DNA from: Candidatus Bathyarchaeota archaeon
GTDB taxonomy: Archaea > Thermoproteota > Bathyarchaeia > Bathyarchaeales > Bathycorpusculaceae
Reading direction: 5' to 3'
NCBI GenBank assembly: GCA_963770935.1
Contig: CAVYRJ010000014.1
Location: forward strand, 32,001 to 96,000
Length of the DNA: 64,000 nucleotides
Position numbers and translations under genes: made by a program. Shown here one piece after another: positions 10,407 through 58,441 of the stretch. The notes beneath the pieces are model-generated. The model had not been told where the DNA came from and ran no database searches. It was given only the letters and a program-made list of their open reading frames with translations. Within the stretch, counting starts at the first letter, position 1. Each line of letters starts with the position of its first letter.

Positions 10407-10514
10407 GGAAACATTGTTTCCATTAATCCCTTATCTGAGGTGGTAGTGTATAAGCAGTTTTCGGTTTCGTATATTTCGCAGGGCGGAGGGGATTAAATTT
10501 TAAATAAAAAAATT

Positions 10515-10727: not shown

Positions 10728-10930
10728 GTGCTTTTCCCCATGTCGACAATGAGCAGTACAAGATTAAGATTATGCAATTGGATCAAAAAACTAATGGATT
10801 GATTCTGGCAAAAGAAAGTACATGTGGCTGACCTGACCCAAGTCTTTTTTTTAAATAAATTTTAAGCGCAAAAGCAAGCGATACAAAGGCTTAAAACGCC
10901 ACTCTGGCAATATATTTTCTGACAGCGATC

Positions 10931-11377: not shown

Positions 11378-11528
11378 TAGTCTAACATCCATAACTTCCG
11401 CCAAGGGGTAATGGCTTACTTAATTTTTTTTCTTGAATGGTTAGAATTTAAGAAATTTAGAAACCTTAGCTTATTTTACAAAATTGGAAAACTAATAAAT
11501 TAGGAAATGAAGTATCTTGGTCAAAAGA

Positions 11529-11909: not shown

Positions 11910-12319
11910 TTTCTAAGTTTCGCTCCTGATGTTGTGTTGTTAAGGTGCAAAATGTCTTACAAAGACACATCTCTTACGTCTTCATAGTGCGTAAAGTGCC
12001 AGATAAACTCTCGCACATAACCAAAGCATACTAAAACGTCTCATGCAACCTAACTGTCCAACACCAGAACAAGTCAATACGTAAAATATATCTTAAAAAC
12101 ATTATTTCAATCACATGATTCACTTAAAGGGAACTGTACAACAGATAAACAGAAAACTCCCCAAGCTCAAGGCGGGAATGAGCATCTGATATGAAGTACG
12201 ATTCCCTTCCCCGTTAGGGTAAAAGAGGGTGTTTATTTTTTCCCAAGATTCTATATGTAGCAAATCAATAGTTTGAAATAACTCCAAATACGGCTCAAAA
12301 ATAGCCATAACTGGTAAAT

Positions 12320-39737: not shown

Positions 39738-40565
39738 TTATTTTTTCTGCCAGAATTCGGCTAATGCAGTGAGTGCATTTTCAAACAAGTAATCTTGAGG
39801 TATAACGTCAACTTTTATTTCCATTTCCTTTAAGGATTCGGCGGTTGTGGGACCAATAGCCACTGTTGTCACTTTTTCATCGATTATGCTACGGAGTTTT
39901 TCCATAGATGCTTTTTCAGTGAGCATTTTGAAGATGTTCTTGGCGCTCAAGCCGCTGCCGAAAACAATAGCGTCGATCCTTCCGCTGGTTAGGTCTTCAT
40001 AGAACTTGGCTGTTAGTTTCTCATCCACGGGCAAACCTGACTCGTAAACGTAGATTTCCTCTACGTCGGCATCCATTTCTTTGAGTTTCTCAGTTAAGGT
40101 CGGGGTTGCGTTGCTGGTTCTTGGGATGCGGATTTTTTTGCCGGAGAGCTGTTTGCCCTGGAGAGATTCGATTATTCCCTCAGAACTGTACTTTGTCGGC
40201 ACCATGTCCACTCGGACGTTTTTTTCTTTTAGGGCTTCGGCTGTTCGTGGACCAACCGCAATAACAAACGCCTTATCCAATCCCTTTTGCAACTTGCTGG
40301 TTAGCTTTAATTCGTCAGCGTCTTCAAAGAGGTACTTGACGCCGTTGGTGCTCATCAAAATAACATAATCAACCTGTTCCTTTTGCAGTTCGATGATGAA
40401 TTTTTTTACGGACGCAAAATTGCTTAAGCCCTTGATCTCTATGGCTGGAATGTAGTAGGGTATACCTCCCATGTCGCTGATTAGTTTACCAGCTTCTTCC
40501 GCCTGACCCGCCGGACGCGTTAAAGCAACGGTTTTGCCTATTAGGTTAGGGGTTTTTTGAACCAT
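39738..40565 (-). CDS. hemD: Uroporphyrinogen-III synthase
   Basis: ALTRP, AVGPRTA, VYES, AIGPTTA. Confidence 0.9.
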   Translation of the reverse strand: MVQKTPNLIGKTVALTRPAGQAEEAGKLISDMGGIPYYIPAIEIKGLSNFASVKKFIIELQKEQVDYVILMSTNGVKYLFEDADELKLTSKLQKGLDKAFVIAVGPRTAEALKEKNVRVDMVPTKYSSEGIIESLQGKQLSGKKIRIPRTSNATPTLTEKLKEMDADVEEIYVYESGLPVDEKLTAKFYEDLTSGRIDAIVFGSGLSAKNIFKMLTEKASMEKLRSIIDEKVTTVAIGPTTAESLKEMEIKVDVIPQDYLFENALTALAEFWQKK

Positions 40566-41300
40566 GCCAGTTTCCTGCCTAGATTAGCAACTTCACCGAT
40601 GACTATGACGGATGGAGGCTTGATTTGTTTGGCTTGAGCTTCTTTAACAATCGTGTCAAGTGTGGCGATTAGTGTTCGTTGTTTGGGATAGGTTCCTGAC
40701 TCAACCATTGCAACGGGTTTCTGTGGGCTTATACCTCCTTCCAGCAATTTGCTGACGATGCCGTCGAGGGATTCTACACCCATCAAGATGACCATGGTGT
40801 CGACAGCGTTGGCGATTTTTACCCATTCGATGGGTTTCTCGGCGTCGCCTGCGCGGTGACCGGTGATTATGGCTACAGATGCCGCGTAATCCCGATGTGT
40901 GAGTGGTATGCCTGCGTAGGCAGGAGCAACGACTGAGGAACTGACACCGGGCACAACTTCAAATTCGATGCCGTTCTCAACAAGTGCCTCTGCTTCTTCG
41001 CCGCCTCTGCCGAAGATGAATGGGTCGCCGCCTTTTAGCCGAACGACTTTACCGCCTTCTTTAGCTTTCTCAACAATTAACTCGGTAATCTTCTCCTGAG
41101 GCACTTCATGCAAGCCAGCTCGTTTGCCGACAAAAATTCTCTCAGCTTTCTCAGGCACTAAACAAAGGATTTCTTCTCCGACACCTAGTCCTGTCATAGA
41201 TTACTACGTCGGCTTCTTTTAGCACCTTAACCGCTTTAATCGTGAGCAGTTGGGGGTCGCCTGGTCCAGCGCCCACAAGGTATACTTTACCATACACCAT
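40541..41300 (-). CDS. cobA: Uroporphyrinogen-III C-methyltransferase, frameshift near 41190
   Basis: [36 protein letters not shown]. Confidence 0.9.
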
Positions 41301-42219
41301 ATTTTTCTCTCCACTCCTTCTCAAAATCTTTAGCGCCTTGATTAATGAGGTCTTCGCCCACTTTTCCGCCCTATCTCTTCAGCTTGGGATAATGTGCCTT
41401 TTGCGAAAGCGCTGATTTTTTTTCTCGAAGTTAATGAAAAGATGCAGCCAAAAAGCGACAACTCATTACGGTTTGTTTGTCCGACAGCTCCTATTGGTAC
41501 TCGGCAGCCGCCCTCCAACTTTAGCACCAAGCTGCGTTCAGCTGTAATCTCAGCTCGAGTTGCTTTGTCTTCGACCGCCCGCAAAATATCTATAACTTCT
41601 GAGTTTCCTTCTTTTGCCACAATAGCAATTGCACCTTGCCCTGCAGCAGGGGGAAATTGGTCTAGTGGAAGACGCTCGGTGATTTCGTTTGTTATGTTCA
41701 TTCGCTGCAACCCTGCCTCGGCGATTACAATGCCTGCTAATTCGCCTTTTCTAACTTTGCCGATTCTAGTGTCGACGTTGCCCCTGATGGGTTCAACATT
41801 AAGGTCTGGGCGTATGTATTTGATTTCAGCCAGCCTTCGCAGGCTGCCCGTTCCGACAACTGCACCCTGCGGCAACGCGTTTAGAAGCAATTTGTCTTTC
41901 GAAATGAATACATCACACTGTGAATCCCGCTTTGGAATTGCAGCTAAAACAGTGCCTTTTTGCTGCTCAACAATGGGCACATCTTTTAAGCTGTGAACAG
42001 CAAAATCGACTTCGCCGCTAGCGACTTGTTGGTCAATTTCCTTCTCAAAGATCCCTTTACAATCGATAGCAAAGAGCGGTTTGCCGTGTTCTTTATCGCC
42101 TATGGTTTTGATAACTTTTAGCTTAAATTCAACGTCTGGGCGTTGTTGTTTAATTTGCTGTAGGGTGCGGTTTGTTTGGGCAAGTGCGAGTTTGCTGCCT
42201 CGTGTGCCAACGGTTAGAA

Positions 42220-42223
<4 letters not shown>
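41287..42223 (-). CDS. hemC: Hydroxymethylbilane synthase, frameshift near 3' end
   Basis: [34 protein letters not shown]. Confidence 0.93.
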
Positions 42224-44499
<2,276 letters not shown>

Positions 44500-44514
44500 T
44501 TTTATGTCTCCTTT

Positions 44515-45147
44515 TCAAAGTTTCATGGCTAATTCTTCAGCCTCACAAAGCTTGCCTTCTCTTAAAGCTTGTTTAATGTTATCGTTATTAAGTATCTCGT
44601 ATAACACTTTGCTTCTAATTTTCGAGTCAGAAACCTCGTCTTTAAGGATACTGCGTACATTAGCCTGCAACTCGATCTCAAGCAAGTCCTCAGGCGTAAC
44701 CAGTTTCTCTATCCGTTGCCTTAGTACCCGTGCCATCGCTGGGCTTTTGCCGCCAGTGGAAACCGCAATCTTGACGTCGCCAACTTTCGCGACTGCTGGC
44801 AAAATGAAATCGCTAAGGGCTGGGTTATCAACTGAGTAAACGATGCAGTCCCCAGATTTTGCGCTTTAATCAGTTCAAGGTTAAGTTTGGGGTCGTTTGT
44901 TACTGCTAAGAAGTACGTCTGGTTTGGGGTTAAGGCTGTCAACAAACGCTTTGGCGTCTTGAATTTCAGTTTTTAGCAGAGCAACCTTTTTTTCTTCACC
45001 AAGCTTCTGAATGCCACCTGAAAAATCTTTGCTTATAACCCAGATTTTTGCGCCAGAATCAACGAAGCTTTGGGTTTTGCGGTAAGCCTCCGCGCCTCCG
45101 CCGACTACTATAACGGTTTTTCCGTCAAGCTTGAGGTCTATGAGCAA
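44515..45147 (-). CDS. sirC: Precorrin-2 dehydrogenase (SirC/Met8-like), frameshifted
   Basis: VVGGGAEAYRK Rossmann motif; IAVSTGGKSPAMA. Confidence 0.85.
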
Positions 45148-46703
45148 CTTTTTGTTTTGCCACCTTCAGAAACGTTAAAGCTATAGTTGGTTAGCAATTT
45201 TTTGAACTTTTCCATAAACGCCTTGTAATCAACCTCAACTTTCATTGGGGGAGAGGCAACTTTAGCCAGCAAATCTAAATCAATATATTTTTCAGCTGCG
45301 TCGATGGCTTGGGCGCCAAAATCTTCGTAGCGGATTTCGATTTCCGGAATCATACCTCTGCCTTCCAAATCCAGACGCGGCACCATCCCCAACAGCTCAA
45401 TGCCTGCGTTTTGGAAAGCATTTTTCATGGTTTGTTTTATTTCGTCGGTTATGTAGCTGACGCGCAGCTTGTTTAGTATTACGCCTGTTGTGTTTACTCC
45501 GAGACGTTTTAGGATGTTAACGTAGTTTAGAGTGTTGATTAATGCGCCTTCGATGCCTTCTTTGTCACAGCCCACGACAACTATGGTAGATGCGCCCAAA
45601 GCCGCGGCAACTTCGGCAGTGGACATTGGTCTTTTATAATTCTCATTTAGTAAACCTGTGAATGCGCTCATGGCTCCTTCAACGAAAAGGAAATCATGTT
45701 TCTCGGCTGCCTTTCTACAGCTTGCTCAAGTGGTGTCCAGCCGCTTTCGCCAATTTTAATCGACGAGTAATCCTTAATCGGTTCCTTAATGAGATAGAGC
45801 GATGGCACGGAGTCGCGTATGTCTCCGCCGACTTTTATGATGCCAACTTTGAAGCCTCTCTTTTTTAATGCTCCAGCGATGCCTGTTACTATGAAGGTTT
45901 TTCCTGAACCGCTCCCAGTCGCCGTCACCATCAGCAATCGTGGCTCTTTTTGGGCTTTTTTTGCTTGACGGATGTTGGTGGCGATTCCGATTTCGCCCTT
46001 TGATTTGCTCTAACAGTTTCGCGTTGCTTTGCCGTATGGCTTCAAGTTCAATTGGTTTATGCCCAGCGATTTTGTGATGCTTTCAATAATGGTTGGGTTT
46101 TGGTCTAAGAGTCCATGGATGAATATGCCGACGACGTTGCCTTGCTTGTTGGCGACACCTGAAATCAAGTCTTGAGGGTCTTTTTTGTAGTTGACCCGTT
46201 TAGCATGGGTAATTATGATGGGTTTGGCGTCTTTGTGGAGGACAATTTTACCGTAGGTGTGGCAGTGGAAACCTGAAACTTCCTTGCCGACCTCTTGGGT
46301 TATGAAGCTTTTGTCAACTATTGTGGCTTTTACGCGGTCAGTGCATACAAGCGGCTTAAACTCTGCATCCAGCAAACCCAAGCCTTCACGGGTTATCGGA
46401 ATGGTTGATAGGCGTCCAACATCGGTTTCTTTGGCAAGCACTTGAAAACCTGAGCAGATGCCAAGCACAAACTTGCCTGAGTCAGCCATTTTTAGTATTT
46501 CGCGGGTGACCTCTGTGTTGACGCTTTGGGATTCAACTAGGCTTCCGCCTGGAATGATTAGCATGTCTAAAACTTCTGAAGCTGGTTTGCCATCTACAAG
46601 CCCGTCGGCGCAGACTAGGTCAGTTGGCAGGTTTCCGAAGTCTTCAAAGCAGGGAAGAGCTCCTGGAAGGTAAACTAAGCCGATTCTGTGATCGAAATTT
46701 CAA
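45138..46703 (-). CDS. CobQ/CbiA-related amidotransferase with N-terminal GATase and C-terminal P-loop synthetase, frameshifted
   Basis: IIPGGS, LGICSGFQ, GFHCHTYG, HG, then TATGSGSGKTF and GVILNK. Start position approximate. Confidence 0.75.
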
Positions 46704-46751
46704 TCCAAAGTGCCCCGAGGGCTATTTACGGTAAGCCTTATATTTAAGCCG

Positions 46752-46769
46752 CATGGTTTATCCAACCAT
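46752..46769 (+). promoter_or_regulatory. Putative operator CATGGTTTATCCAACCAT after TATA box CTTATATT (46737-46744)
   Basis: Perfect 8-5-8 palindrome at 46751-46771; 15/18 identical to the site upstream of cbiM. Confidence 0.65.
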
Positions 46770-48048
46770 GCATTCCTCGGCAAAGACAGACCACGTCATC
46801 AACGTTAGAATAACGCATAAAACAGCGCGAGTGCCGTTGATGGAGGCTGTAGCGTTTAAAGAGAAGGAAAAAGGGCTTGCCGAGATACTTTCTCTTGAAA
46901 ATGTGGAAGAATGTCTGATTTTGCAGACTTGCAACCGTATTGAGCTTTTCATTGTAACTGAAACGGCTGAAGAAACGGCAGATGTTGGTTAAGGATTACT
47001 TGGCAAAACGGGCGGTATCGAATGCTGAGGAAGCGTACAAAGCAATAGAAACCTCCATTGACAATGACACCTTCAATCACCTGCTCAGAGTCACTTCAGG
47101 CTTAGAATCGATGGTTATCGGCGAAGACCAAGTCCTTAACCAAGTCTGGGACGCCTACTGAAGCCGACAACGCCAAAACCTTAGGCCCAATCCTTAAACA
47201 CCTGTTTAACCGTGCAATGACAGTTGGCAGACGCGTTAGGAATGAGACAGGCATCAACAAAGGCGCCGTTTCAATCGGTTCAGCAGCCGTTGAATTGGCA
47301 GTTAATTTACTGGGAAACTTGGAAGACAAAAAAATCCTCGTTATGGGCGCTGGAGAAATCGGAACGCTCGTCGCTAAAGCCTTAGCTCGCCGCTGTCTTA
47401 GCCCGATTTTTATTGCTAACAGAACTTATGCCCGAGCAGTAACACTAGCCGAAGACCTCTCAGGGAAAGCGGTAAAGTTTGACCAGTTTGAAGAAGTCCT
47501 TGTTGACGCCGATGTGGTTATTTGTTCCACTGCTGCACCACATTACTTTTAACCAAAGACATTGTTTCTCGGTTGATGAGCCAACGCGTAAACAAAACTG
47601 ACTAGTAATTATTGACATTTCTAATCCTCGTAACGTTGAAAAAACCGTTCACGAAGTAGAAGCTACCAAACTTTACAACATCGACGACCTGCAGTTTATC
47701 GCCGATAAGAACAAGCTGGAACGAGAAAAAGGCATCGAGAAAGCCGTCAAAATCTTCGGAGACGAACTCATAATTCTAGACGATGACATGAAAAGCTTCT
47801 CGGTTCGTCTAATTGTTTCATCGCTTGCTATCCCGCGCTGAAGCAGATCGGCAAAAAGAACTCGCAACAGCCCTAAACATGCTTGGGTAATTGATGAAAG
47901 ACAAAAGCGGATATTGACGATCTAACTTCCATTTTGCTTAAGCAGACGTTTATTCCGATTGTTGAGAATTTGAGGTCAGCCGCCAAGAACGGTGATAAGA
48001 AGTCATTGATATTGCGGTTAAATTGTTTGAGAAAACGGGGAAAAATAA
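46768..48048 (+). CDS. hemA: Glutamyl-tRNA reductase, several frameshifts
   Basis: LQTCNRIE, SGLESMVIGEDQV, VMGAGEIG, IANRT, DISNPRNVE. Confidence 0.92.
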
Positions 48049-48049
48049 C

Positions 48050-49121
48050 TTGTCAAAATAGCCCTTGATAATGTTGGTTTAATTCTGATTGGGCACGGAA
48101 GCAAACTGCCTCATAACCGAGAAAACCTTGAAAAACTAGCAGATATTCTGCGTAGCCGCGGCAAATTCAAGACTGTAGAAATCGCTTTCATGATACGTGA
48201 CACCCCAACCGTTAACGAAGCAATTGATGCAATGGCGAAGAAAGGCATATCAAAAATCGTGTTAGTTCCAGCTTTTCTTGCGCCCGGAGTCCACACTACC
48301 GAAGATATTCCAGGTTTATCGGCGTAAAAGAAAAAGAACCCCAACTAAAAGCCAAAGGCATCGAACTTGTTTACGGCGAACCATTAGGCAGCGACGAACG
48401 CATCGCCGACATTCTGGAAGAAAAAGCCTTCAAAGCCTTGGGTGCAAGGCTAAAAAAGACGGCGAAATCGTAGATGCCTATTCAGTGTCTGAGGCAGGCA
48501 AAATCGTTGACAAAAGCATGATGCTTATACGTCAAGCAATCGGCGACGACTTGGCAAAACTGCCCAAAGATAAAGTTCCCATCGTCGAACGGGTTGTCCA
48601 CACAACGGCTGACCCAGAATTCGCTAAACTCATAGTAATCAGTGACGACGCGGTTAAAGCAGGCGTAGCAGCCATTAAGGCAGGCGCAAAAGTTGTAACC
48701 GACGTCAAAATGGTTAAAGCAGGCATCAACGAGGCACGCCTCAAAAAGTTCGGCAGCACAAGTCTACACTTACATGAATGACGAACGCGCCATGGACCTT
48801 GGCCAAAACGGAAGTCTTAACCCGTTCCGCGGCTGCCATGCGTTTAGCCATAAAAGACGGCTTAGACGGCGCAATCGTGCTTATTGGCAACGCCCCAACC
48901 GCAGCCTTTGAGTTGGCAGAACAAATAAAGCAGGAAAAGTTAAACCAGCATTAATCGTTGCTGTTCCAGTGGGCTTTGTCGGCGCTGCAGAATCCAAAGA
49001 AGTCGTCGCAAAACTTCCAGTTCCATACGTGATAACTAGGGGACGCAGAGGCGGCAGCACCATTGCAGTTGCAGTCTTCAACGCTTTGCTGTCTATGGCT
49101 GAAGGCAAGCTTTACGGTTAA
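48050..49121 (+). CDS. cbiX/cbiC: Short CbiX cobaltochelatase fused or tightly coupled to CbiC (precorrin-8X methylmutase), frameshifted
   Basis: IGHGSKLPHN..FLAPGVHTTEDIP (CbiX); RVVHTTAD, GNAPTA, PVGFVGAAESK, GGSTIA (CbiC). Confidence 0.85.
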
Positions 49122-49133
49122 AGGTGACTAATT

Positions 49134-50237
49134 ATGGCGCGGTTTTTCAAATACGGCATAACAACAGGCGCAACCGCGGCGGCAGCAGCAAAAGCCGCAG
49201 TAATCGCGGCACTTAAAGAGCCAGTTGACCGTGTAGTTATCCCAACACCGATTGGTTTGCGTTTTGAAGTGCCAGTGAAATCCAGCAGAAAACTCGCCAA
49301 GAGACACTGCTGAAGCAGTAGTCGTTAAAGATGCGGGACAAGACATTGACGCCACCGACAAAATGGAAATCACCGCCACCGTCAAACTAACAGACGACGG
49401 CAAAATCACCATTAAAAGCGGCGTAGGCATCGGCAAAGTCACTAAACCAGGTTTGCAGGTTCCCATCGGTGAAGGCGCAATCAACCCAGTCCCAAAAGCA
49501 TGATAACTGAAGCCGTCAAAGAAGTCCTACCAGCCGGCAAAGGCGCAGAAATAATTATTAGCGCTCCTGAAGGGGCAAACATAGCCAAAAAAACAATGAA
49601 CGCCAAACTAGGCATAAAAGGCGGCGTCTCCATCCTTGGCACAACAGGCGTAGTCAAACCCCTATCGCTTGAAGCGTGCCGACGCTCACTTGGTTCCCCA
49701 AATTGACGTTGCAATCGCGCGAGGTTACAAACGGTATTGTTTTTGTTCCGGAAACATTGGAGAACGCATTGCTAAAGACAAAGTTCAAAGTCCCCGAGGA
49801 CGCGATTGTTCAAACAGGCGACTTCGTGGGTTACATGCTTGATAAAGCCGTTGAGAAAGGCGTTAAAGAAATCATATTCATTGGTCACTCAGGCAAAATA
49901 GTCAAGTTGGCGGCAAACATTTTCAACACGCACCACAAAGTTGGGGATGCACGAAACGAAGTTATCGCTTCCTACGCAGGCGCTGTCGGAGCATCAACCC
50001 AAACAATCAACGAGGTTTTAGTTGCTAACACGTCAGATGAAGCCTCAGAAATCCTAAAACCAACAGGCCTTTTAGAGAAAACTTACGACAGAATCTGCTG
50101 CCCGAGTTAACCAGCGTATTAGCGACAGGGTGGAAAACAAGATAAAGCTAAGCGTCGTCATTGTTGCTATGGATGGCAGTGTCCTTGGCATGGACGAAAA
50201 CGCTAGGTGCAATAAGCCTTGGCTAAACTTAACATAG
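49134..50237 (+). CDS. cbiD: Cobalt-precorrin-5B C1-methyltransferase, frameshifted
   Basis: [48 protein letters not shown]. Confidence 0.9.
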
Positions 50238-50909
50238 TCGGCGTTGGACCAGGCTCAGCAGATTACGTTACGGCAGCGGCACGAAACACGGTAGCTCAAG
50301 CCCAAATAGGTAATCGGGGCACAACGCAGCCTTGACCTTTTCCCACCGACATCAAAGGCGAAACCCTGCTTTTAACCGCAAAAAACCTTAACGAATGCCT
50401 CAAACATCGGCTGTTGAATCGCCAAAAAAGGCAAAAACGTGACGATTCTGTCAACAGGCGACCCAGGATTCTCAGGGCTTTTCAAATCGGTTTTAAATAC
50501 TAAGCTTATTAGAGCCTGCAGAAATCAACGTTGTTGCAGGTGTAAGCTCGATTCAAACCTGCGCTGCTCGACTTGGGCTAGTTGGGATGAAGCATGCCTT
50601 TTCACTTTTCCATCAGGGCAACGTGACCGCGAGAGAAAAATGAGTTGGCAGTCGTTGCCTTAAAGGTGGCAGAGACGCGATACTTCTGCCTGACTCCAAG
50701 GGCTTCTCCGCCAAAAGAAATCGCAGCTTACCTTATCAAAGCTGGTTTTGACAACCAGCAAACACCAGTTTTATCTGCGAAAACCTAACCTTAAGAGCGA
50801 CGAACGGATAACCTGAAGCAGCCTTGTAGCAGGTTCTTTGGCTGCGGATTTTGGCGCTTTATGCGTAATGGTTATCAAAGCAAACCGTGCATGTAATGTG
50901 TACAGTTGA
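50219..50909 (+). CDS. cbiE: Cobalt-precorrin-7 C5-methyltransferase, heavily frameshifted
   Basis: [26 protein letters not shown]; position between cbiD and cbiT. Confidence 0.8.
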
Positions 50910-50915
50910 CTTTCG

Positions 50916-51512
50916 ATGGCTAAGATTTGGACTTACAAGACCCCCGGCATACCTGACGAACTTTTATTCAGAGCGATAATGTTCCTGGACCAACCAAAGA
51001 GGACGTTAGAGTTTTAACGATTTCTAAAGCCCGCTTAAACGAGGGCGACATCGTGATTGATGTTGGTTGCGGTACAGGCGGTTTAACTGTTGAGGCTGCA
51101 CTGCAAGTTGCTCCCTAAGGCAAGGTTTACGCGATTGACGAAGACCAAGCTGCGGTCAAGTTAACGCAAAGTAATGTTGAAAAGTTTGGTGCACAAGGCA
51201 ATGTCTTGGTTAAGCGGGGTAAAGCTCCTGAAGCCTGTTAACCCTTCCAAGGCTGATGCAGTTATGGTTGGTGGCGGCGGAATTCCCTGGAGCAATTCTT
51301 CAAATCGCCAAAAAACTGAAACAAACGGCCGAGTTGTGGTTAACGCGATTCTTTTGGAAACCGCCACTACCGCGATTGATGAACTTAAACAGTTGGGCTT
51401 CAAAGATATCGATGTTACGCATATTTCGGTGTCTAAGGGAAAACAAATAAACAGCGGCACCATGATGATGGCAAGAAACCCCATTACAATAGTTTCAGCT
51501 TCAAAACTTTAG
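50916..51512 (+). CDS. cbiT: Cobalt-precorrin-6B C15-methyltransferase (decarboxylating), frameshifted
   Basis: PGIPDELF, PTKEDVR, DVGCGTGG, ARNPITIV. Confidence 0.88.
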
Positions 51513-52298
51513 GTGAAAAAAGATTTGATTGGAGTATTCATTGGTATTGGTGTTGGTCCAGGCGACCCAGAATTAATCACGTTAAAAGCAGCAAAAGCAT
51601 TGCAAACAGCTGATGTTATTTGTGTTCCAAAATCTAACGCTAACAAGCCAAGCATTGCTGTTAACATGGTTAAGCCAATTCTTGATGAAAGGCAGAAACC
51701 GCCTGAAATGCTTGAACTAATTTTTCCCATGACCAAAGATGACCTAAACAATCGAAGCATTTGGGTAGAAAACGCGGCTATCGTCGCCGCGAAAGCAAAA
51801 AGGTGACGTAGCTTTCATCACACTTGGCGACCCAATGTTTTACAGCACCTTTTTGTACCTCTACGAAGCCGTAAAGGAAAGTTACCCAGAAGTTGAACTT
51901 GAAATCATCCCTGGCGTAACCTCCGTAACTGCTGCCGCAGCAAGCGCAAACTACCTTTGGCAGAAAAAGAGGAAGTGGTTACAGTTATCCCCTCAGACTT
52001 ATCCCTTGCACACATCGAGGAAGCCGCTAAACACGCCGATAACTTGGTTTTCATGAAGTGCGCTTTTCACATTAAGGAGTTTCTTCCAATTCTGTTCAAG
52101 GCTGGCTTTACTGAAAACTCAACCATTGCCCTAGTCAGACGATGCACTTTGCCAGAAGAGAAAGTTCTCGTGGGCAAACTCGGCGATGTAGACAGGTGGG
52201 ACATAACGGAGGATTACTTCTCTGTAGCAATTGTTAAGAAAAATCAGGTTCCTATTCATTGGAAACAAAACGGAAACGGTAACGGTGGAAGAAAATGA
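51513..52298 (+). CDS. cbiL: Cobalt-factor II C20-methyltransferase, frameshifted
   Basis: [34 protein letters not shown]. Confidence 0.88.
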
Positions 52299-53057
52299 AC
52301 AAAGTTGTATTTATAGGTGCAGGTCCAGGCGACCCAGAACTAATCACGCTTAAGGGCAAAAGATGGCTTGAACAAGCAGACGTCGTCATCTACGCGGGAA
52401 GCTTGCTGAACCCAGAATACCTAAAATACTGCAAAAACGGTGCGGAACTTTATGACAGCGCCAAAATGGGTTTGCCCGAAATGCAAAAAGTCATGGTGGA
52501 AGGCGTTAAAGCAGGAAAACTGTTGCCCGTCTTCACGATGGTGACCCAAGCTTCTACGGTGCAATCCAGGAAGTGATGACTGGTCTTGACAAGGAAGGAA
52601 TTGATTACTTCCGTATTCCAGGCGTAAGCTGCCTTTTAGGTGGAGCTGCCGCGTTGAACCGTGAATTGACTCTTCCAAACATTTCTCAAACAGTCATCAT
52701 TACTCGTCCCGAAGGCCGAACTCCAGTTCCAGAAGTGAAAGCATCAACAAACTGGCGCTGCATCAAGCAACCATGGTTATTTTCCTTGGCACACCGCACA
52801 TAGCCAAAGTTGTGGATGAGCTCCAAAAAGGCGGTTACCCCAAAGATACACCGGGCCAAGTGGTTTACAAGGCAACTTGGCCTGAACAAAAAATTGTTAA
52901 GGGCACTCTCGCAGACATAGTTGGGAAAGTCAAGGCTGAAGGCATAACTGAGACGGCGCTTATTTTTGTAGGAAAAGTCCTTGACCCGCAAGCCTATGAC
53001 TTATCTAAGCTGTATGACCCCAAGTTTACGACGGGGTTCCGTAAAGGCGAAGACTAG
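52295..53057 (+). CDS. cbiF: Cobalt-precorrin-4 C11-methyltransferase, frameshifted
   Basis: [46 protein letters not shown]. Confidence 0.9.
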
Positions 53058-54144
53058 ATGTATGCTAAGGGCATTGCTGTTGTTGCAATTACGAGGCGTG
53101 GCGTAGAGACCGCACTAAAAATCAAAGAAGCCCTAGATAGAGTTGGCTTGAATGCGACGGTTTATGCCCCAAAAAAATACAGCCAAACTGGCGTTGTTGT
53201 TTTAGAGAAAAAAGTGGGTGACTTTATTAAGGACATCTATAGCAGGGTAGATGCTTTAGTTGCTGTTATGGCAACTGGCATAACAATACGTGCGGTTGCG
53301 CCTCTTTTAGAGAGCAAACTAACCGACCCTGCAGTCGTGGGGGTAGATGCGGCAGGAAAATTCGTTATCAGCCTCTTATCAGGGCATTTTGGCGGCGCAA
53401 ACGAGCTGTCAAGAACAATCGCCAAAGGTATAGGTGCAACGCCAGTAATCACCACAGCTTCAGACGTTATGGGAAAAATGAGCGCTGACGAAATCGCTAA
53501 AATCCTGCATTTAACAATCCAAAACCCTGAAAGCCTCGTCTCAGTAAACTCTGCCATAGTAAACGGCGATCACATAGTTGTTGTTCTAATTGGCGATGTC
53601 AAAATTCCTGTAAACATTGTTAGTTGCTACGAAATAAAAAAAGCTGAAAGCGGAATGCAGGCCATTAGAAATTATCAGCCAATATGATGCGGGTGTAATA
53701 ATCGCCCATGAACCGTTATCGATTGCCAAGTTTGTGAAACCATTTACTATCCTAAAAACCAAAAATATAGTGGTTGGTTTGGGCGCAAGAAAAGACTCAA
53801 CCAAAGAAAGCATGATTGAAGCCGTTAACACAGTTCTCGAGCGTGTTCACATTCCTTTGGAGCGCATTGACCGTTTCGCCACAGTCGACATCAAACGAAA
53901 CTCTAAACAAATGGTAGAAGCGGTGGAAAGTTTGGGTGCCCCGCTTGAGTTTTTAAGTGTCGATGCACTTCGTTCAGTAAGTTACAGTGATCTTTCGCCT
54001 GATTCAGCAATGGTTCAGGAAAAAATCGGTGTTGGAGGAGTATGTGAACGAGCAGCATTACTAATAGCGGGAAAAAACTCAAAACTACTCATGAAAAAAA
54101 CCAAGCTAAACGGGGTAACGGTAGCGGTAGCCGAGGGCGAATAG
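53058..54144 (+). CDS. cbiG: Cobalt-precorrin-5A hydrolase, frameshift near 53670
   Basis: MATGITIR, DPAVV, LLSGH.GGAN, VITTASD, GVCERAAL. Confidence 0.92.
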
Positions 54145-54872
54145 CCGTTGTCGGCATCGGACCTGGCAGTCTTGAGCATTTAACGCCAAAAGCTCGAAAC
54201 GAAATAGAGGTCGCCGACGTAGTTGTAGGTTATGGCACTTACATTAAACTGATCCAATCTATAGTTAGAAAAGATGCCGAAATTTCATCTGGAACAATGG
54301 GCAAAGAAGTTGAACGTGCAAAAATTGCCGTAGATAAAGCCAAAGAAGGCAAACGCGTGGTGATGGTGAGCAGCGGTGACCCAGGTGTTTACGGTATGGC
54401 TGGTGTTGTTTTGGAAGTAGCAGCACAAGAAAAGACCCGTGTTCCTGTCGAAATTATTCCTGGCGTAACCGCAGCCACTGCAGCCTCAGCAATCCTTGGA
54501 GCACCATTGGTGAGCGACTTTGCAGTCATCAGCCTCAGTGACCTGTTAACGCCTTGGGAAAAAATTGAACTAAGACTCGAATCCGTAGCAGCCGCAGACC
54601 TTTCAATTGTTCTCTACAATCCACAGAGCCAAGGACGTGTCGAGCCGCTGACCAAGGCTTACGAGATAATGCTAAAGCATATCAAGCCAGATACGCCAGT
54701 GGGCATCGTCAGGCAAGCAGGGCGCGAGGGTGAAAATTACGTGATCACAACTCTTAAAGATATGTTAAACTGGGAAATCGACATGGTCACAACGATTGTT
54801 GTCGGCAATTCGGCGACAAAAGTCGTTAACGGGAAGATGGTGACAGCCCGAGGATACGACATAGCCCAATAA
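54141..54872 (+). CDS. cbiH: Cobalt-factor III C17-methyltransferase (no canonical start)
   Basis: In-frame IAVVGIGPG at 54141; SSGDPGVYGMA, ISLSDLLTPW, LYNP, RGY. Confidence 0.9.
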   Translation: MAVVGIGPGSLEHLTPKARNEIEVADVVVGYGTYIKLIQSIVRKDAEISSGTMGKEVERAKIAVDKAKEGKRVVMVSSGDPGVYGMAGVVLEVAAQEKTRVPVEIIPGVTAATAASAILGAPLVSDFAVISLSDLLTPWEKIELRLESVAAADLSIVLYNPQSQGRVEPLTKAYEIMLKHIKPDTPVGIVRQAGREGENYVITTLKDMLNWEIDMVTTIVVGNSATKVVNGKMVTARGYDIAQ

Positions 54873-54874
54873 AA

Positions 54875-55729
54875 CTATGCTTTTTCCTCTTTCTGCTGTA
54901 GTAATTGCAATATTTCTTTTCGGGCTTCACTGATAGTTAATGGCAACTCATGGTCAATAGAAAGGTTGTCCTTGTCTCTTAGCACCTCAAATAGGTGTGT
55001 TAATCGGGGAGAACGCAAGTTTACCTGGCGGATAAGGTCTCCGTTAGAGAATGATTCTTTCGGAGTACCCTCGGACACAAGTTTGCCTTTATTTAACACG
55101 TACATTTTAGTAGCGAAAAGCGGCACCATATCCACATCATGTGTTGCAAGCAGTAAGGTTATTCCCTTTTCTTTGTTTAGTTGCAAAAGCAGATGCAATA
55201 TTTCGCTTGTAGCCCTTGGATCTAGGTTTGATGTTGGCTCATCCATGATAATGACTTCGGGTTGCATAGCGAGCACTCCTGCAAGAGCGATACGTTTTTT
55301 CTGTCCAAGGCTTAAGAAGTGTGGTGGCTTTTCTGAGAATTCGCTCATCCCCACAGTTTTTAGCGCTTCCTCAACGATAGTTTTGACTTTTTCAGTAGTG
55401 TATCCTAAATTGAGGGGTCCAAACGCAACATCTTGTTTGACGGTAGGAGCGAAAAGTTGGTCATTTGGGTCTTGAAATACAAATCCAACGCGTTTACGGA
55501 GTTGAAGCAGTGATTTTGAATCGTATTGGAGAGGTTTGTCTTCAAAGAGGATTTTGCCTGAAGTGGGTTTTAGGATGCCGTTAAGGTGGTTAAGCAGCGT
55601 TGTTTTGCCTGAACCGTTGGTGCCCAATAGGGCAATGCGTTCAGCCCGGTCGAAGCTCAAAGTGATGTTGTCTAAGGCAAGCGTGCCGTCGGAGTATTCG
55701 TGGGTGAGGTTTTCGATTTTAAACAACAT
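54875..55729 (-). CDS. cbiO: ECF cobalt transporter ATPase
   Basis: GTNGSGKTT, FQDPNDQLF, LSLGQKKR, DEPT. Confidence 0.92.
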   Translation of the reverse strand: MLFKIENLTHEYSDGTLALDNITLSFDRAERIALLGTNGSGKTTLLNHLNGILKPTSGKILFEDKPLQYDSKSLLQLRKRVGFVFQDPNDQLFAPTVKQDVAFGPLNLGYTTEKVKTIVEEALKTVGMSEFSEKPPHFLSLGQKKRIALAGVLAMQPEVIIMDEPTSNLDPRATSEILHLLLQLNKEKGITLLLATHDVDMVPLFATKMYVLNKGKLVSEGTPKESFSNGDLIRQVNLRSPRLTHLFEVLRDKDNLSIDHELPLTISEARKEILQLLQQKEEKA

Positions 55730-55732
55730 ATT

Positions 55733-57523
55733 TTAGAGACTCCATATTTGAACTATGTTTGATGCAATTAACGCAAGCATAAAGTCGAAGACTAAGATGC
55801 CTGCGATGAAGGCTTTGCTGGGTTTAGGCTGGTCTTCAAGAACACGGATGTTGCCGTCGTAACCTCGGGCGTTCATAGCAATGAATGTGCGTTCACCCTG
55901 CTCAAGAGTTCTAATGAAGAGGTTAGCTGCAAGCAGCGATGTGGAGCGAATACGGTTAAACCAGCCAGTTTGTCCCAGCCGCAGTTTCTGTGCAGTGCTC
56001 ATTTTTGATGAAACTTCCATGAACACGAATACGTAGCGGTAAATGAGCAGGCTGATTTCGACGAGGATTTTGGGGATGTGAATTTTTCTTAAGCTTATAA
56101 AAACGTCATTCATGGATGTGGTGAGCACAAGGAAGAACAAACCTGAAACAGCGCCCAAGACGCGGAAGAAAGTTGTGAATGCAGTAACGATGCCGTTATT
56201 GTAGATGGCCCATTTAAACCATGGAAACGCAAACTCCACAAGTGGCGTGCCGTTGCCAAAGAACAACGCTATAAAAACGCAGCTTACCGCGGCAAAAATC
56301 AGCGGGTAAATCAACAGGTCAAAGTAGAAGCGCCCCGGAATCTGCGCTACCAAAACAATCAGCACGACTGCTATAATGAACACGGTTATGGGAACGACAG
56401 GTGAGGGTGATAGGACGCTAAGTATCAGCATGGAGACTGCGAAAAGGATTTTTGTTGTTGGACTTTTCTTAGCAAGCGAGTTGGTGTAGGCGTAGCTGTC
56501 GATTTGTGCGGACAGGTTGCTGTGGTCTTCGCCGTGACTGTGGTTTTGTCGATGCATGTTATGTTGTAACTGCGTTTTTGCTTGTTTTCGACGTGTCCGA
56601 ATAACTATGTAAGCGATTATGCAGGCACCGATTAAGGCTTGCACATAAAAAAGGATAGTTACCCACTCGCTCGGCAGAGTCAAAACGGGGCTAAACCATG
56701 GTTGATACCCCTGCGAAATAATGATGTTTGCCGCGGCGTCGTCCGTACCTGCCATGTTAGTAGAGACAAAAACTAGCGGTGTAATAAAGAGCGTTAATAA
56801 TAAAGCAATTAAAATTGCGTAATGTTTCTTTTTGAGTTGGAATTGCTTCTCGGGGATTCCCGCAATTGGGATATGGATAACTTTTAAAGCGGTCAAAATC
56901 TGGGTTTTGTATTTTATAAGAAATTCAAATATGAAGACAGCAAGAATTCCTTCGGCAATTGCGAGCGGTATTTGTGTAACTGCGAATATACCGGCAAATT
57001 GGAGAAACGCCTGCGTAAAGCCTGTTGCTGGAAAAGCAAGAGCCAACTGGAATGATGTTGTGAGGTAGGTAAATAGGTCACTTAAGGCTACTGCAAGAAA
57101 CACGCTTGCTTGAGTTGGCACACGAATTTTCCTGAACAAAATCCAAGTAACATATCCGACTAATGGCCCCACTATTCCCATAGAGAATACGTTTGCGCCC
57201 AATGTCGTTATGCCGCCATGGGCAAGTAGGGTGGCTTGAAAAATCAGGGCAATCATTGATAGAACCGAAGCGATTGCGGGTCCAAAAACTATTGCTGCTA
57301 ATCCTGAGCCTGTTGGGTGGCTGCTGCTACCAAAGAACGATGGCAACTTGAGGGCGGAAACAACGAATATGAATGCTCCCATGAGGGCGAGGAGAGGTTT
57401 TGTTTCAGGGTTCTTTTTTGCGATTTTGGAGAGCTTGTAAATTCCGTATGCTACGATTGGAATCATTATTGCCCACCAGATTTCCCACCAGGGGTGCGGC
57501 AGGAAGCCCTCCATAATGTGCAT
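55733..57523 (-). CDS. cbiM: Fused cobalt ECF transporter CbiM-CbiN-CbiQ
   Basis: MHIMEGFLP CbiM N-terminus, SHPTG, HGGITTLGAN; GTDD..YQPW (CbiN); His-rich linker; YRY..MNARGYDG (CbiQ). Confidence 0.9.
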   Translation of the reverse strand: MHIMEGFLPHPWWEIWWAIMIPIVAYGIYKLSKIAKKNPETKPLLALMGAFIFVVSALKLPSFFGSSSHPTGSGLAAIVFGPAIASVLSMIALIFQATLLAHGGITTLGANVFSMGIVGPLVGYVTWILFRKIRVPTQASVFLAVALSDLFTYLTTSFQLALAFPATGFTQAFLQFAGIFAVTQIPLAIAEGILAVFIFEFLIKYKTQILTALKVIHIPIAGIPEKQFQLKKKHYAILIALLLTLFITPLVFVSTNMAGTDDAAANIIISQGYQPWFSPVLTLPSEWVTILFYVQALIGACIIAYIVIRTRRKQAKTQLQHNMHRQNHSHGEDHSNLSAQIDSYAYTNSLAKKSPTTKILFAVSMLILSVLSPSPVVPITVFIIAVVLIVLVAQIPGRFYFDLLIYPLIFAAVSCVFIALFFGNGTPLVEFAFPWFKWAIYNNGIVTAFTTFFRVLGAVSGLFFLVLTTSMNDVFISLRKIHIPKILVEISLLIYRYVFVFMEVSSKMSTAQKLRLGQTGWFNRIRSTSLLAANLFIRTLEQGERTFIAMNARGYDGNIRVLEDQPKPSKAFIAGILVFDFMLALIASNIVQIWSL

Positions 57524-57539
57524 TTCTTTGGGTCCTCTT

Positions 57540-57557
57540 ATGGTTGGTTAGTCCATG
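57540..57557 (-). promoter_or_regulatory. Putative operator CATGGACTAACCAACCAT after TATA-like GTTAATAA (57572-57565)
   Basis: 15/18 match to the hemA site with the same 7-nt spacing from the TATA box. Confidence 0.6.
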
Positions 57558-57595
57558 TGAAGACTTATTAACTTTCGTTTAACTAAAGTTAAACT

Positions 57596-58441
57596 GTGGT
57601 TGAATTGAAAACATCCAAACAAACCAACGTCCTACTGCGGGACAAAGGCGAATTCACAAAATTCCAAATTCTCTTTGAAATAATGCGTAACCAGCCCCAT
57701 ATCAAACAAAAAGATATCGCCGACGTACTTGGAATAACAATTCAAGCTGTCTCGAAATACTTCAAAAAACTATCGAAAGAAGGCTTCCTTGAAGCTGGTT
57801 CAGAACGTGCAGACTATAGGTTAACTGCTAAGGCAACGGCAAAACTTCGCGATGACCTGGGAAACCTTGAGAATTATGTGTTATCGATTAAGCATGAAAT
57901 GAAAATTGAACGTGCCCTTCCAGCCTTAGCTACGCAGCCCGTCAAAGCAGGCGAAGAAGTTGGCATAATTATGAAAGAAGGCATTATGTACACAGTGTCC
58001 AAAGACAATCTAGCTGCAGAAGCAAAAGGCATAGCCATGACAAACGCCGATGCAGGAGAGGACATAGGTTTGAAGAATCTGCGTGGCAAAGTTAAGTTGA
58101 GACAAGGAAAAATCCTCATAATAAAACTGCCAAGTATAAGAAGAGGTGGCTCAAGAACTGTTGACTTGGCAAAAGTCAAGGCTATCTACGGAGAATTCAA
58201 ACCTGATAGAGTCGGCGTTATGGGCGCAGTAGGCAGAGCCGTTCTCAACAAGCTCGGGCTTAAGGCTGACCTAGAATTTGGCATAAGTAGTGCCGCAGCA
58301 ATAGCTGCTTCACGCGGACTAAATGTACTTGTGCTTGTTGTGGGCAGAATGGTAAACCGAGTGATCGAAGAAATAGATCTGATAAACATGAAGAATGCTG
58401 CAGAAGTAACTTACGAGGTCAAAGACGGAAAAATTATTTGA
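57596..58441 (+). CDS. Winged-HTH transcriptional regulator with C-terminal putative ligand-binding domain
   Basis: QKDIADVLGITIQAVSKYFKKL..EG HTH; divergent from cbiM. Confidence 0.85.
   Translation: MVELKTSKQTNVLLRDKGEFTKFQILFEIMRNQPHIKQKDIADVLGITIQAVSKYFKKLSKEGFLEAGSERADYRLTAKATAKLRDDLGNLENYVLSIKHEMKIERALPALATQPVKAGEEVGIIMKEGIMYTVSKDNLAAEAKGIAMTNADAGEDIGLKNLRGKVKLRQGKILIIKLPSIRRGGSRTVDLAKVKAIYGEFKPDRVGVMGAVGRAVLNKLGLKADLEFGISSAAAIAASRGLNVLVLVVGRMVNRVIEEIDLINMKNAAEVTYEVKDGKII

Follow-up and report, generated by a model that had tools for sequence, protein, structure and literature searches.

A conserved palindrome at cobalamin-related promoters of Bathyarchaeia and two winged-helix protein families as candidate regulators

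The hemA-cbi and cbiM promoters of a bathyarchaeal genome (G000) carry two similar 18-mers which, on sequence comparison, are copies of a 17-bp palindrome, GGwTGGATwATCCAwCC (hereafter O1), that marks B12 genes. The wHTH-DUF7839 protein encoded next to cbiM had been proposed as the factor binding these sites, but a PH0730-like wHTH-DUF4443 protein is probably a better candidate for the reader of O1, and the site of the wHTH-DUF7839 protein itself is probably a second palindrome (O2) in its own promoter. The explanation that we prefer, to which we give roughly an even chance, is that O1 would be read by the DUF4443 protein, with the DUF7839 protein acting at O2 as a local regulator of cobalt uptake. 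What the sequences show is where the motifs lie, how well they are conserved, how motifs and proteins are distributed among genomes, how the proteins are built and that one gene fusion exists; we infer every protein-DNA assignment, the direction of regulation and the ligands.

Results

Two promoter sites and the O1 palindrome

The window (the whole stretch of 64 kb analysed) belongs to a genome of 1.98 Mb. On its plus strand, the TATA box of the hemA-cbi promoter (CTTATATT, 46737-46744, read directly from the sequence) is followed, 7 nt further on, by the hemA-side 18-mer (CATGGTTTATCCAACCAT, 46752-46769); a cttatatttaa block is kept in 11 congeneric hemA loci, and also in G019 and G004. The cbiM promoter, on the minus strand, consists of a TATA box (GTTAATAA, 57572-57565), 7 nt and the second 18-mer (CATGGACTAACCAACCAT, 57557-57540). 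The two 18-mers are identical at 15 of 18 positions. The pattern CATGGNNTANCCAACCAT had three matches in the window with up to two mismatches, versus 0.08 expected from shuffled sequences, and the hemA and cbiM sites were its sole matches in the entire genome with up to one mismatch. The sequence-only reading had described this pair as a common operator lying, at both promoters, after the TATA box and before the expected transcription start, and in these respects it was borne out. It had also noted no B12 riboswitch: an Rfam scan of the window yielded no family at the gathering threshold, including the cobalamin riboswitch RF00174 and its relatives, and a B12 riboswitch is therefore considered absent from the window.

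The third match in the window (43537-43520, two mismatches) was rejected: it codes for the conserved C-terminus of HemB, KSWLNQP, and the stop codon, and the same codons are found in G020. A perfect ATGGTT-N5-AACCAT at 30529-30545, within an ORF belonging to no family, was treated as a chance occurrence.

The hemA-side 18-mer is enclosed by a perfect palindrome, GCATGGTT-TATCC-AACCATGC (46751-46771), pointed out in the sequence-only reading. Its left arm reads GGTCGG in four other genomes (G007, G014, G015 and G019) and, because this arm is not conserved, the 8+5+8 palindrome was rejected as a functional unit. The conserved hemA start is the ATG at 46768 (MHSS...) rather than the one at 46753; four congeners have no upstream ATG. 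The family-wide symmetry axis of O1 is the T of GGTT-T-ATCC. At hemA, O1 (GCATGGTTTATCCAACC, 46751-46767, plus strand) matches the palindrome consensus at 14 of 17 positions, contains the exact 14-mer TGGWTWATCCANCC and ends 1 nt ahead of the hemA ATG. The copy at cbiM (ACATGGACTAACCAACC, 57542-57558, minus strand) is weak, with 12 of 17 positions matching the palindrome and two mismatches to the 14-mer, and is one of 190 sites genome-wide at this level (≤2 mismatches). Stronger copies are present at the matching position of the cbiM promoter in relatives; in L135, the closest relative compared, the copy is weaker still, the TGG having been lost.

Distribution of O1

A Gibbs sampler run on 19 promoter segments returned a single 15-mer aligning the hemA, cbiM, btuF and C7 sites. 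A weight matrix for O1 was then built solely from the transporter promoters of 12 relatives, and the genes downstream of its sites were named by Pfam. Over the whole of G000, the top match of this matrix was the btuF promoter, and the C7 and C1 (cobT operon) promoters were also among the top matches. Five O1 units were recognized in G000. The concept of a regulon was thereby upheld, as a coherent cobalamin set larger than that claimed initially: hemA-cbi and cbiMNQ-O are joined by btuFCD, a Dph6-like-cobT-cobS/cobY operon and a gene for a secreted protein. This secreted protein has PQQ-repeat-like sequence, as judged by eye.

The O1 14-mer had 90 matches in 26 genomes, versus one for a reversed control, and this 14-mer core of O1 was present in 93 of the 111 genomes of the order (here, as in the other O1 and DUF counts, related genomes are non-independent samples). 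The sequence-only reading had named absence of the motif from related promoters as grounds for its refutation; sequence comparison indicates that the motif is conserved at these promoters across relatives. The perfect 17-mer was found at 120 loci at least (64 of the first 80 titles listed were archaeal), in several archaeal classes, beside B12-uptake genes and nrdD. Clustering of the genes neighbouring O1 at the 120 listed loci gave ECF S-components (31), BtuF-like binding proteins (22), FecCD (14), Dph6-like proteins (8) and NrdD (6). No regulator gene was seen within the O1 clusters of G005 and G003, the ORFs of which were read by eye.

State of the tetrapyrrole genes

The hemA-cbi operon is not intact: each of its genes (hemA, cbiX-cbiC, cbiD, cbiE/T, cbiL, cbiF and cbiG; 46768-54144, plus strand) falls into short ORFs that switch from one frame to another. 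A tblastn search with the intact operon of G020 located a frame change within each of them, and cbiL leaves the frame and then returns to it. The operon contains about 25 frame disruptions, which may have arisen from either decay or assembly error. The cbiH-like tetrapyrrole methylase gene that follows (54048-54872, plus strand) is an open frame with no ATG, GTG or TTG upstream of the conserved N-terminus, its first start codon lying at 54297. Among the divergent tetrapyrrole genes (39738-46747, minus strand), identified from ORFs, Pfam and tblastn, hemD, hemC and hemL are intact. A single frameshift is present in cobA (near 41190), hemB is split at about 44030, the sirC-like gene (44515-45147) leaves the frame and returns, and the cbiA/cobQ-like amidase gene (45138-46747) lacks a canonical start and is interrupted by a frameshift and an internal stop.

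The cobalt transporter and the O2 palindrome

Both transporter ORFs, on the minus strand, are intact. That of cbiO (54875-55729) encodes an ABC ATPase (Pfam ABC_tran). The cbiMNQ genes are present as announced, but cbiM, cbiN and cbiQ form a single fused ORF of 596 aa (55733-57523; Pfam CbiM, residues 2-208; CbiN, 237-296; CbiQ, 348-557). A gap of 72 bp separates the cbiM start (57523) from that of the divergent regulator ORF (57596), as initially stated. Between O1 and O2 lies a common AT-rich TATA element (CTTATTAAC / GTTAATAAG, 57564-57572). O2, GTTTAAC-TAAA-GTTAAAC (57577-57594), is found between this element and the regulator start and is upstream of the TATA box when viewed from cbiM.

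The order O1-TATA-O2-regulator was conserved among the loci of relatives compared. With TTTAAC-N4-GTTAAA as its core pattern, O2 was present with up to one mismatch at 44 of 52 non-identical regulator loci from metagenomes. The strict pattern was found in 5/18 DUF7839-positive genomes versus 3/93 negative ones. A looser pattern modestly exceeded its control (summed counts of 94 versus 44 in regulator-positive genomes, and 57 versus 43 in regulator-negative genomes). At other promoters of the loci compared, O2-like sites beside O1 were confined to genomes in which the regulator is present, whole or as a remnant.

The wHTH-DUF7839 protein

The regulator ORF (57596-58441, plus strand) encodes an N-terminal wHTH (HTH_24/MarR_2, residues 21-73), a beta domain and DUF7839 (residues 168-261). 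The Pfam scores were 67 bits for DUF7839 (PF25211; cut-off 27) and 36.3 bits for HTH_24 (residues 21-65), so that the protein combines the winged helix with a DUF7839 match above the cut-off and is a member of the wHTH-DUF7839 family. Its relatives comprise 245 cluster representatives (E≤1e-10), mostly of 250-290 aa; five of the seven representatives scanned had a wHTH, all five with DUF7839. Congeneric orthologues displayed 63-74% identity, and the AF2 model of the regulator had a pLDDT of 94.3. The protein falls outside the DtxR/MntR type, in which a Fe_dep_repress HTH is joined to a dimerisation domain that binds metal through His/Cys/Glu ligands (Fe_dep_repress scored 17.5 bits here, below the cut-off of 26), PDB profile matches to SloR and ScaR being confined to residues 14-76. 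It is also distinct from the MarR family proper, whose members are single-domain wHTH dimers of about 140-150 aa that hold their ligand between the dimerisation and DNA-binding lobes: Foldseek matches to MarR proteins span about 80-100 N-terminal columns, and two further domains are present.

No histidine or cysteine was found among the invariant or 90%-conserved columns of the sensor module. Its best structural matches are to the fold of tetrapyrrole (class III) methyltransferases, among them CbiL (8xj3), OphA, 3hh1 and CobJ (3nut), all weak (E 0.01-0.05, TM(query) of about 0.4, about 130 columns), and a search of the ESM Atlas with the module gave no usable match. The C-terminal extension of BtuD was rejected as a relative of DUF7839 (hhalign probability 2%). 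One protein, P0220, is a CbiO with the whole sensor module fused at its C-terminus (34% identity, E 8e-32). No larger fusion was found among proteins of 493-2000 aa, which constitutes weak evidence. A literature search found no paper naming DUF7839, COG1497, PF25211 or DUF4443.

Of the 111 genomes of the order, 18 had a DUF7839 match. The occurrence of DUF7839 follows that of cobalt transporters (cbiM or NiCoT) and of genes for de novo haem/corrin synthesis, the linkage being tight for cobalt uptake: the divergent neighbour of the regulator gene was cbiM at 39 and NiCoT at 3 of 52 non-identical metagenome loci, and hemA was present in 12/13 regulator-bearing genomes versus 2/13 genomes without the regulator.

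The PH0730-like wHTH-DUF4443 protein

The DUF4443 gene of G000 (C1:110987-111622) encodes 211 aa, with a domain match at C1:110995-111291 (76.4 bits, cut-off 27). The protein matches PH0730 (PDB 2P8T) over residues 25-206 (E 1.2e-13), and its relatives have the Pfam domains PH0730-like_N and DUF4443. DUF4443 was found in 97/111 genomes of the order, and also in Sulfolobus acidocaldarius. O1 is present in 11 of the 14 genomes that gave no DUF4443 match, and DUF4443 in 15 of the 18 that lack an exact O1; co-occurrence says little here, because both are near-universal in the order. The two candidate families meet in some genomes. In G040, a DUF4443 paralogue overlaps the end of the DUF7839 gene, and the two are therefore considered to form one operon; in both G050 and G121, a single contig carries the DUF4443 and DUF7839 matches, about 450 bp from each other. 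As for a CarH-type factor with a B12-binding domain, none of the 15 PF02310 matches in G000 was of CarH-type length, and the 264-aa open frame, the one checked for an HTH, is a frameshifted radical-SAM enzyme.

Discussion

How the sites are read

One model holds that O1 is bound by the wHTH-DUF7839 protein encoded beside it, which would repress corrin synthesis as well as cobalt uptake, and that an unrelated factor takes over O1 in genomes lacking this protein; the model now seems unlikely. The linkage of the DUF7839 protein to cobalt-uptake and de novo genes stands. Its co-occurrence with hemA argues for such a role, as do the presence of O1 in the intergenic region of the regulator at 41 of 52 non-identical loci (≤3 mismatches) and the larger number of O1 copies in regulator-positive genomes (14 in G050 and 8 in G121, for example). 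Binding to the shared 18-mer, by contrast, is unsupported. All 13 congeners lacking DUF7839 have the O1 core, and at their btuF, cobT and ECF-S promoters its sequence and position are unchanged; the core is also present in 76 of the 93 order genomes lacking DUF7839 and in archaeal classes beyond that of G000. Two unrelated proteins of identical specificity would be required, and O2, a different palindrome that is better conserved and lies in the regulator's own promoter, would be left unexplained.

As for O2, it could instead belong to the promoter or be bound by a third factor. It is similarly improbable that a third factor, from neither DUF family, reads O1 as a genuine B12 operator, O2 being no more than a part of the regulator gene's core promoter or start region. 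Conservation of the O2 block does extend to its spacer TAAA and to the GTCAGGTTGA that follows, beyond the needs of a binding site, and DUF4443 is encoded at just 12 of the 120 listed O1 loci and, within the order, adjoins O1 at only 2 of 12 loci, that of G000 not being one of them. However, 12 of 120 is far above the roughly 0.3% expected, by a rough estimate, for a single-copy gene and a random 5-kb stretch; eight of these 12 genes lie within 100 nt of O1 and, at two of the 12 loci, O1 overlaps the start of the DUF4443 ORF. O2-like sites are, moreover, found upstream of the TATA box at btuF-type promoters far from any regulator gene. The cbiM site, for its part, might be a decayed, non-functional remnant, its 15/18 identity having no present regulatory meaning and the synthesis pathway that it served being already dead. 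Its poor match to the palindrome, the 190 genomic sites at least as good, the loss of TGG in the closest relative compared and the lesions across the hemA-cbi operon are consistent with this view, but the cbiMNQ, cbiO and regulator ORFs are intact, the exact TATA spacing has been kept and the lesions may be assembly errors. We consider such decay very unlikely.

According to the preferred explanation, with DUF4443 at O1 and DUF7839 at O2, O1 lies in cobalamin-related promoters of Bathyarchaeia and several other archaeal classes, after the TATA box and before the start of transcription. From this position a dimeric repressor would keep RNA polymerase from being recruited when B12 is sufficient, and this reader of O1 would be the near-universal PH0730-like wHTH-DUF4443 protein, not the neighbouring wHTH-DUF7839 protein. 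The latter, at O2, across the common TATA element, would act as a repressor of its own gene while adjusting expression of the divergent cobalt transporter, and its C-terminal module may sense cobalt status, as Co2+ or an intermediate of the corrin pathway.

A broader reading, which we put forward tentatively and with less confidence, is that the two wHTH families divide B12 control between them. DUF4443 would be the long-hypothesised archaeal B12 repressor, recognising a palindrome that is conserved in Nitrososphaeria, Korarchaeia and Methanomassiliicoccales as well as in Bathyarchaeia. The DUF7839 module, its fold resembling that of tetrapyrrole methylases, would respond to cobalt or to an intermediate of corrin synthesis and would gate cobalt import twice, once within a transcription factor bound to O2 and once within the CbiO fusion protein.

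Archaea are not known to use B12 riboswitches, and for their control of B12 synthesis, B12 salvage and cobalt uptake this locus offers two palindromes, one of them a defined operator, and names two candidate proteins. O1 could be used to predict B12-responsive genes and, hence, producers and salvagers in uncultured archaeal genomes, and the CbiO fusion suggests a new regulatory module of ECF-type cobalt importers.

Comparison with known systems

The bacterial B12-element regulon spans corrin synthesis, cobalt uptake, btuFCD, nucleotide-loop assembly and the B12-independent isozyme NrdD. The genes associated with O1 resemble those of this cobalamin riboswitch regulon, from corrin synthesis and cobalt uptake (cbiMNQO, NiCoT) to btuFCD, nucleotide-loop assembly and NrdD. 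The bacterial riboswitch acts as a leader RNA, whereas O1 is a palindrome in the DNA itself, located after the TATA box and ahead of the transcription start. In archaea, Rodionov et al. reportedly predicted, in J Biol Chem in 2003, a 'CBL-box' upstream of B12 genes in some species, with a hypothetical regulator; that study is not known to have named a binding protein. O1 resembles the CBL-box in being a predicted DNA signal at archaeal B12 genes.

MDR1, LrpA, Phr, TrmB and NrpR are archaeal repressors that bind just downstream of the TATA box. Like them, the O1 system has its operator at about -17 to -1, and its sites are palindromic and would be bound by wHTH dimers. It differs from them in its sensor domains, DUF4443 and DUF7839, and in the two different palindromes flanking one TATA box. 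For PH0730 of Pyrococcus horikoshii, the PDB record (2P8T, 'hypothetical protein') gives no function, ligand or DNA site. The C2 domain of MetN and the TOBE domain of ModC are C-terminal regulatory domains of ABC importer ATPases that stop import when the substrate is plentiful. The DUF7839 module of P0220 is likewise C-terminal on an ATPase, of the CbiO type; it has a different fold and, in the window, is joined to a wHTH instead.

O1, a conserved palindrome at the hemA and cbiM promoters

Direct reading of the sequence bore out the elements that a sequence-only reading had placed at two promoters. On the hemA side, the TATA box CTTATATT (46737-46744, + strand) is followed, after 7 nt, by the 18-mer CATGGTTTATCCAACCAT (46752-46769, + strand); on the cbiM side, the TATA box GTTAATAA (57572-57565, − strand) is followed, again after 7 nt, by CATGGACTAACCAACCAT (57557-57540, − strand). 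The two 18-mers are identical at 15 of 18 positions. The gap of 72 bp between the cbiM start (57523) and the divergent regulator ORF (57596) was also as described, and no Rfam family scored above threshold in the 64-kb window, in which the sequence-only reading had seen no riboswitch either. A degenerate 18-mer with at most one mismatch matched only the hemA and cbiM sites in the whole 1.98-Mb source genome (G000), which the names of close homologues place in the Bathyarchaeia; with at most two mismatches, there were three matches in the window, versus 0.08 expected.

The block cttatatttaa...GGTTTATCCAACCATGCATTCC was kept nearly unchanged in the hemA promoters of 11 congeners, G019 and G004. 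The long palindrome previously read at this promoter is not the conserved unit, as four of the compared hemA promoters have GGTCGG where G000 has GCATGG. This variation in the left arm, together with the conserved hemA block, identifies the conserved hemA start codon as the ATG at 46768. In orthologous regulator loci, the transporter-side site occupies the equivalent position, with a sequence resembling TGGAT-N5-ATCCA(ACC), and a Gibbs sampler aligned all 19 promoter segments on a single 15-mer. The full element (hereafter O1) is a 17-bp palindrome, GGwTGGATwATCCAwCC, matched at 14 of 17 positions by the hemA copy and at 12 of 17 by the cbiM copy.

In 26 genomes, the 14-mer core TGGWTWATCCANCC matched 90 times and its reversed control once; across the order, 93 of the 111 sampled genomes contained the core. 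The perfect 17-mer GGATGGATWATCCATCC occurred at no fewer than 120 loci in a species-representative collection. Of the first 80 titles among the matches listed, 64 were archaeal, and the archaeal hosts were Bathyarchaeia, Nitrososphaeria, Caldarchaeales, Methanomethylicia, Korarchaeia and Methanomassiliicoccales. ORFs no more than 2.5 kb from the site were clustered for 120 perfect O1 loci among the matches listed, yielding ECF S-components (31 loci), BtuF-like binding proteins (22 loci), ABC ATPases (18 loci), FecCD (14 loci), a Dph6-like protein (8 loci) and NrdD (6 loci). In a Korarchaeum contig (L296) and five other loci among these matches, a perfect O1 directly precedes nrdD, encoding the B12-independent ribonucleotide reductase. 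The inclusion of a B12-independent isozyme of this kind in a regulon is a classic mark of B12-responsive control, known from bacterial riboswitch regulons.

The predicted O1 regulon in G000

A weight matrix derived solely from the transporter promoters of 12 relatives was scanned over the whole of G000. One of the best hits, at C8:281847, lies directly after a TATA box, 23 nt before a Peripla_BP_2 gene followed by genes for FecCD, an ABC ATPase, a radical-SAM/SPASM protein and DUF2284. Another (C7:125561-125581) is the perfect 21-bp palindrome TTGGTTGGATAATCCAACCAA, located after a TATA box and before the gene for a signal-peptide protein that looks, by eye, PQQ-repeat-like; the G002 and G012 orthologues of this gene likewise bear O1. 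A third, C1:24599, precedes a Dph6-like gene, a DBI_PRT gene (cobT-type) and a CobS/MobA-like (cobY-type) fusion. From the genes behind its sites, the regulon therefore spans synthesis, cobalt uptake, corrinoid uptake and nucleotide-loop assembly. In other families, O1 is followed by a different secreted protein of about 500 aa; the secreted proteins behind O1 may be surface corrinoid-binding proteins.

Several further features were observed. An ORF divergent from the cobT operon (C1:24696-25170; L069:3697-4168), with O1 in common, encodes 94 aa and is overlapped by a 93-aa ORF; the ORF at this position in relatives, which may be cobZ-like (PgpA-type phosphatase), has 161-169 aa, the G000 ORF being half that length. 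Apparently the same region is found on two G000 contigs (C9:901-4782 and C18:22890-26774), each segment having an additional cbiM paralogue and an identically spaced O1-like site, TGGTTTTTTCAGCCA; the segment may be duplicated or doubly assembled. More intergenic O1-like sites, with two mismatches, lie beside AT-rich blocks at C14:101167, C14:111601 and C3:1979, the second of these being near a gene for a B12-binding domain (C14:110375-110722). A perfect ATGGTT-N5-AACCAT palindrome at 30529-30545 of the window lies inside a 374-aa ORF without an NCBIfam match and was set aside as probably due to chance.

The wHTH-DUF7839 regulator and a second palindrome, O2

The regulator (57596-58441, + strand) consists of a wHTH, a beta domain and DUF7839. 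Of the other 40 genomes sampled, 12 have an orthologue with 63-74% identity, G016 has a broken copy and two more have short remnants only. DUF7839 was present in 13 of 26 genomes searched closely and in 18 of 111 of the order. The sequence-only reading had this protein bind the shared 18-mer. O1 is, however, present in 13 of 13 congeners and in 76 of 93 genomes of the order that are free of DUF7839, its position being unchanged at btuF, cobT, secreted-protein and ECF-S promoters, which argues against that assignment.

The regulator instead tracks de novo synthesis and cobalt transporters. hemA was detected in 12 of the 13 regulator-bearing genomes versus 2 of the 13 that lack the regulator, and among 52 non-identical metagenome loci, the divergent neighbour was cbiM in 39 and NiCoT in three; NiCoT also replaces cbiM beside the regulator in G020 and G016. 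The complete sensor module also occurs as a fusion with a CbiO-type ATPase in a single protein, P0220.

A second palindrome (O2), GTTTAAC-TAAA-GTTAAAC, lies at 57577-57594, between the shared TATA box (57564-57572) and the regulator start. It was conserved in every orthologous locus read and, with one mismatch allowed, in 44 of the 52 metagenome loci. The layout is transporter start, O1, TATA box, O2, regulator start; O2 is thus at a repressor position for the regulator gene and, as seen from the transporter, at an upstream (activator) position. In some genomes with the regulator or a remnant, btuF-type promoters likewise have an O2-like site ahead of their TATA box; none was found in 11 regulator-free loci. 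A strict O2 pattern was present in 5 of 18 DUF7839-positive versus 3 of 93 negative genomes; with a looser pattern, enrichment was only modest. Given this conservation, co-occurrence and modest enrichment, the DUF7839 protein is predicted, with moderate confidence, to be the reader of O2.

AF2 models were confident, with a pLDDT of 94.3 for the whole regulator and of 96.5 for residues 104-281. Foldseek returned only wHTH proteins as significant matches to the whole model; for the C-terminal part, the best matches were tetrapyrrole methylase folds (CbiL 8xj3, OphA, 3hh1 and CobJ 3nut), at weak scores (E 0.01-0.05, TM ~0.4). Most conserved columns of the sensor module are Gly, Ala or Pro; a GGSR motif and several acidic positions are conserved as well, but no His or Cys. 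The ligand may be Co2+, held via carboxylates, or an anionic corrin intermediate.

A DUF4443 protein as a candidate reader of O1

One protein of about 210 aa, combining a PH0730-like_N/CggR_N wHTH with DUF4443, recurs in 12 of 120 O1 loci among the matches listed; within these 12, its start lies less than 100 nt from O1 in eight, and the ORF start overlaps O1 in two. Its nearest solved structure is the uncharacterised PH0730 (2P8T). In G040 (C1:1501139-1502676; L360:2140-3677), the ORF of a 241-aa DUF4443 paralogue overlaps the stop codon of the DUF7839 gene; the two thus share one operon, in front of which there are two O1-like sites. In G050 (C32) and G121 (C59), about 450 bp separate the DUF7839 and DUF4443 domain matches, which share a contig. 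DUF4443 matches came from 97 of the 111 genomes of the order, mostly one per genome, and G000 has a single copy (211 aa). DUF4443 and O1 are each near-universal in the order, so little weight attaches to their co-occurrence; within the order, the gene is near O1 in just two of 12 DUF4443 loci, and it is not near O1 in G000. The genomic context makes the DUF4443 protein a candidate for the predicted reader of O1.

A damaged haem/corrin block

Proteins of the intact G020 operon, mapped onto the window, changed frame inside hemA, cbiX-C, cbiD, cbiE/T, cbiF, cbiG, cobA and the cbiA-like gene; the last of these, in addition, contains an internal stop and lacks a canonical start. In the sirC-like gene and in cbiL, the frame is lost and later regained, and hemB is split. 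About 25 lesions (frameshifts or stops) were counted, nearly all within 44.0-53.7 kb of the window, with an outlier at 41190; hemL, hemC, hemD, cbiMNQ, cbiO and the regulator gene are undamaged. A cbiH-like frame (54048-54872, + strand) lacks any ATG, GTG or TTG ahead of its conserved N-terminus (IAVVGIGPG); a start codon first appears at 54297. Among the six lowest ORF-poor regions, just one other had a normal G+C content, and this one was read, from its translations, as a probable rRNA operon.

The damage may reflect a recent loss of the de novo pathway in a lineage shifting to salvage, in line with the absence of hemA from roughly half the genus; in G000 the salvage genes are undamaged. Alternatively, this stretch of the assembly may be poorly polished. 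Frame disruptions extend beyond the cbi cluster, since a B12-binding radical-SAM gene at G000:C1:151570-152800 is split over three frames (122, 259 and 81 aa). We favour a local artefact or a population-variable block, because the damaged block (44000-54150) is contiguous and its neighbours are intact.

Two other features of the window were recorded. cbiM, cbiN and cbiQ form a single 596-aa ORF (55733-57523, − strand); G014 (613 aa) and G006 (601 aa) have comparably long frames, while most relatives have a separate cbiM of 220-280 aa. Positions 8000-12000 have a low G+C content (0.35-0.36), every ORF between 7442 and 10931 being shorter than 110 aa.

Comparison with known systems

A literature search on DUF7839, COG1497, PF25211, DUF4443 and PF14544 found no paper, and passages from a cobalt/B12 review, a cobalamin biosynthesis review and a comparative genomics paper on Ni, Co and B12 name no archaeal regulator. 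Three points appear to be new: the association of DUF7839 with cobalt transporters and O2, its fusion to CbiO, and the role of DUF4443 as a candidate B12 repressor; we infer each of the protein-DNA assignments (DUF7839 to O2 and DUF4443 to O1). O1 may already be a predicted signal: Rodionov et al. (2003) reportedly described, for some archaea, a “CBL-box” assigned to a hypothetical B12 regulator. The O1 regulon comprises the same set of genes as that controlled by bacterial B12 riboswitches, but O1 differs from these in being a putative DNA operator between the TATA box and the transcription start, the position occupied by the operators of classic archaeal repressors.
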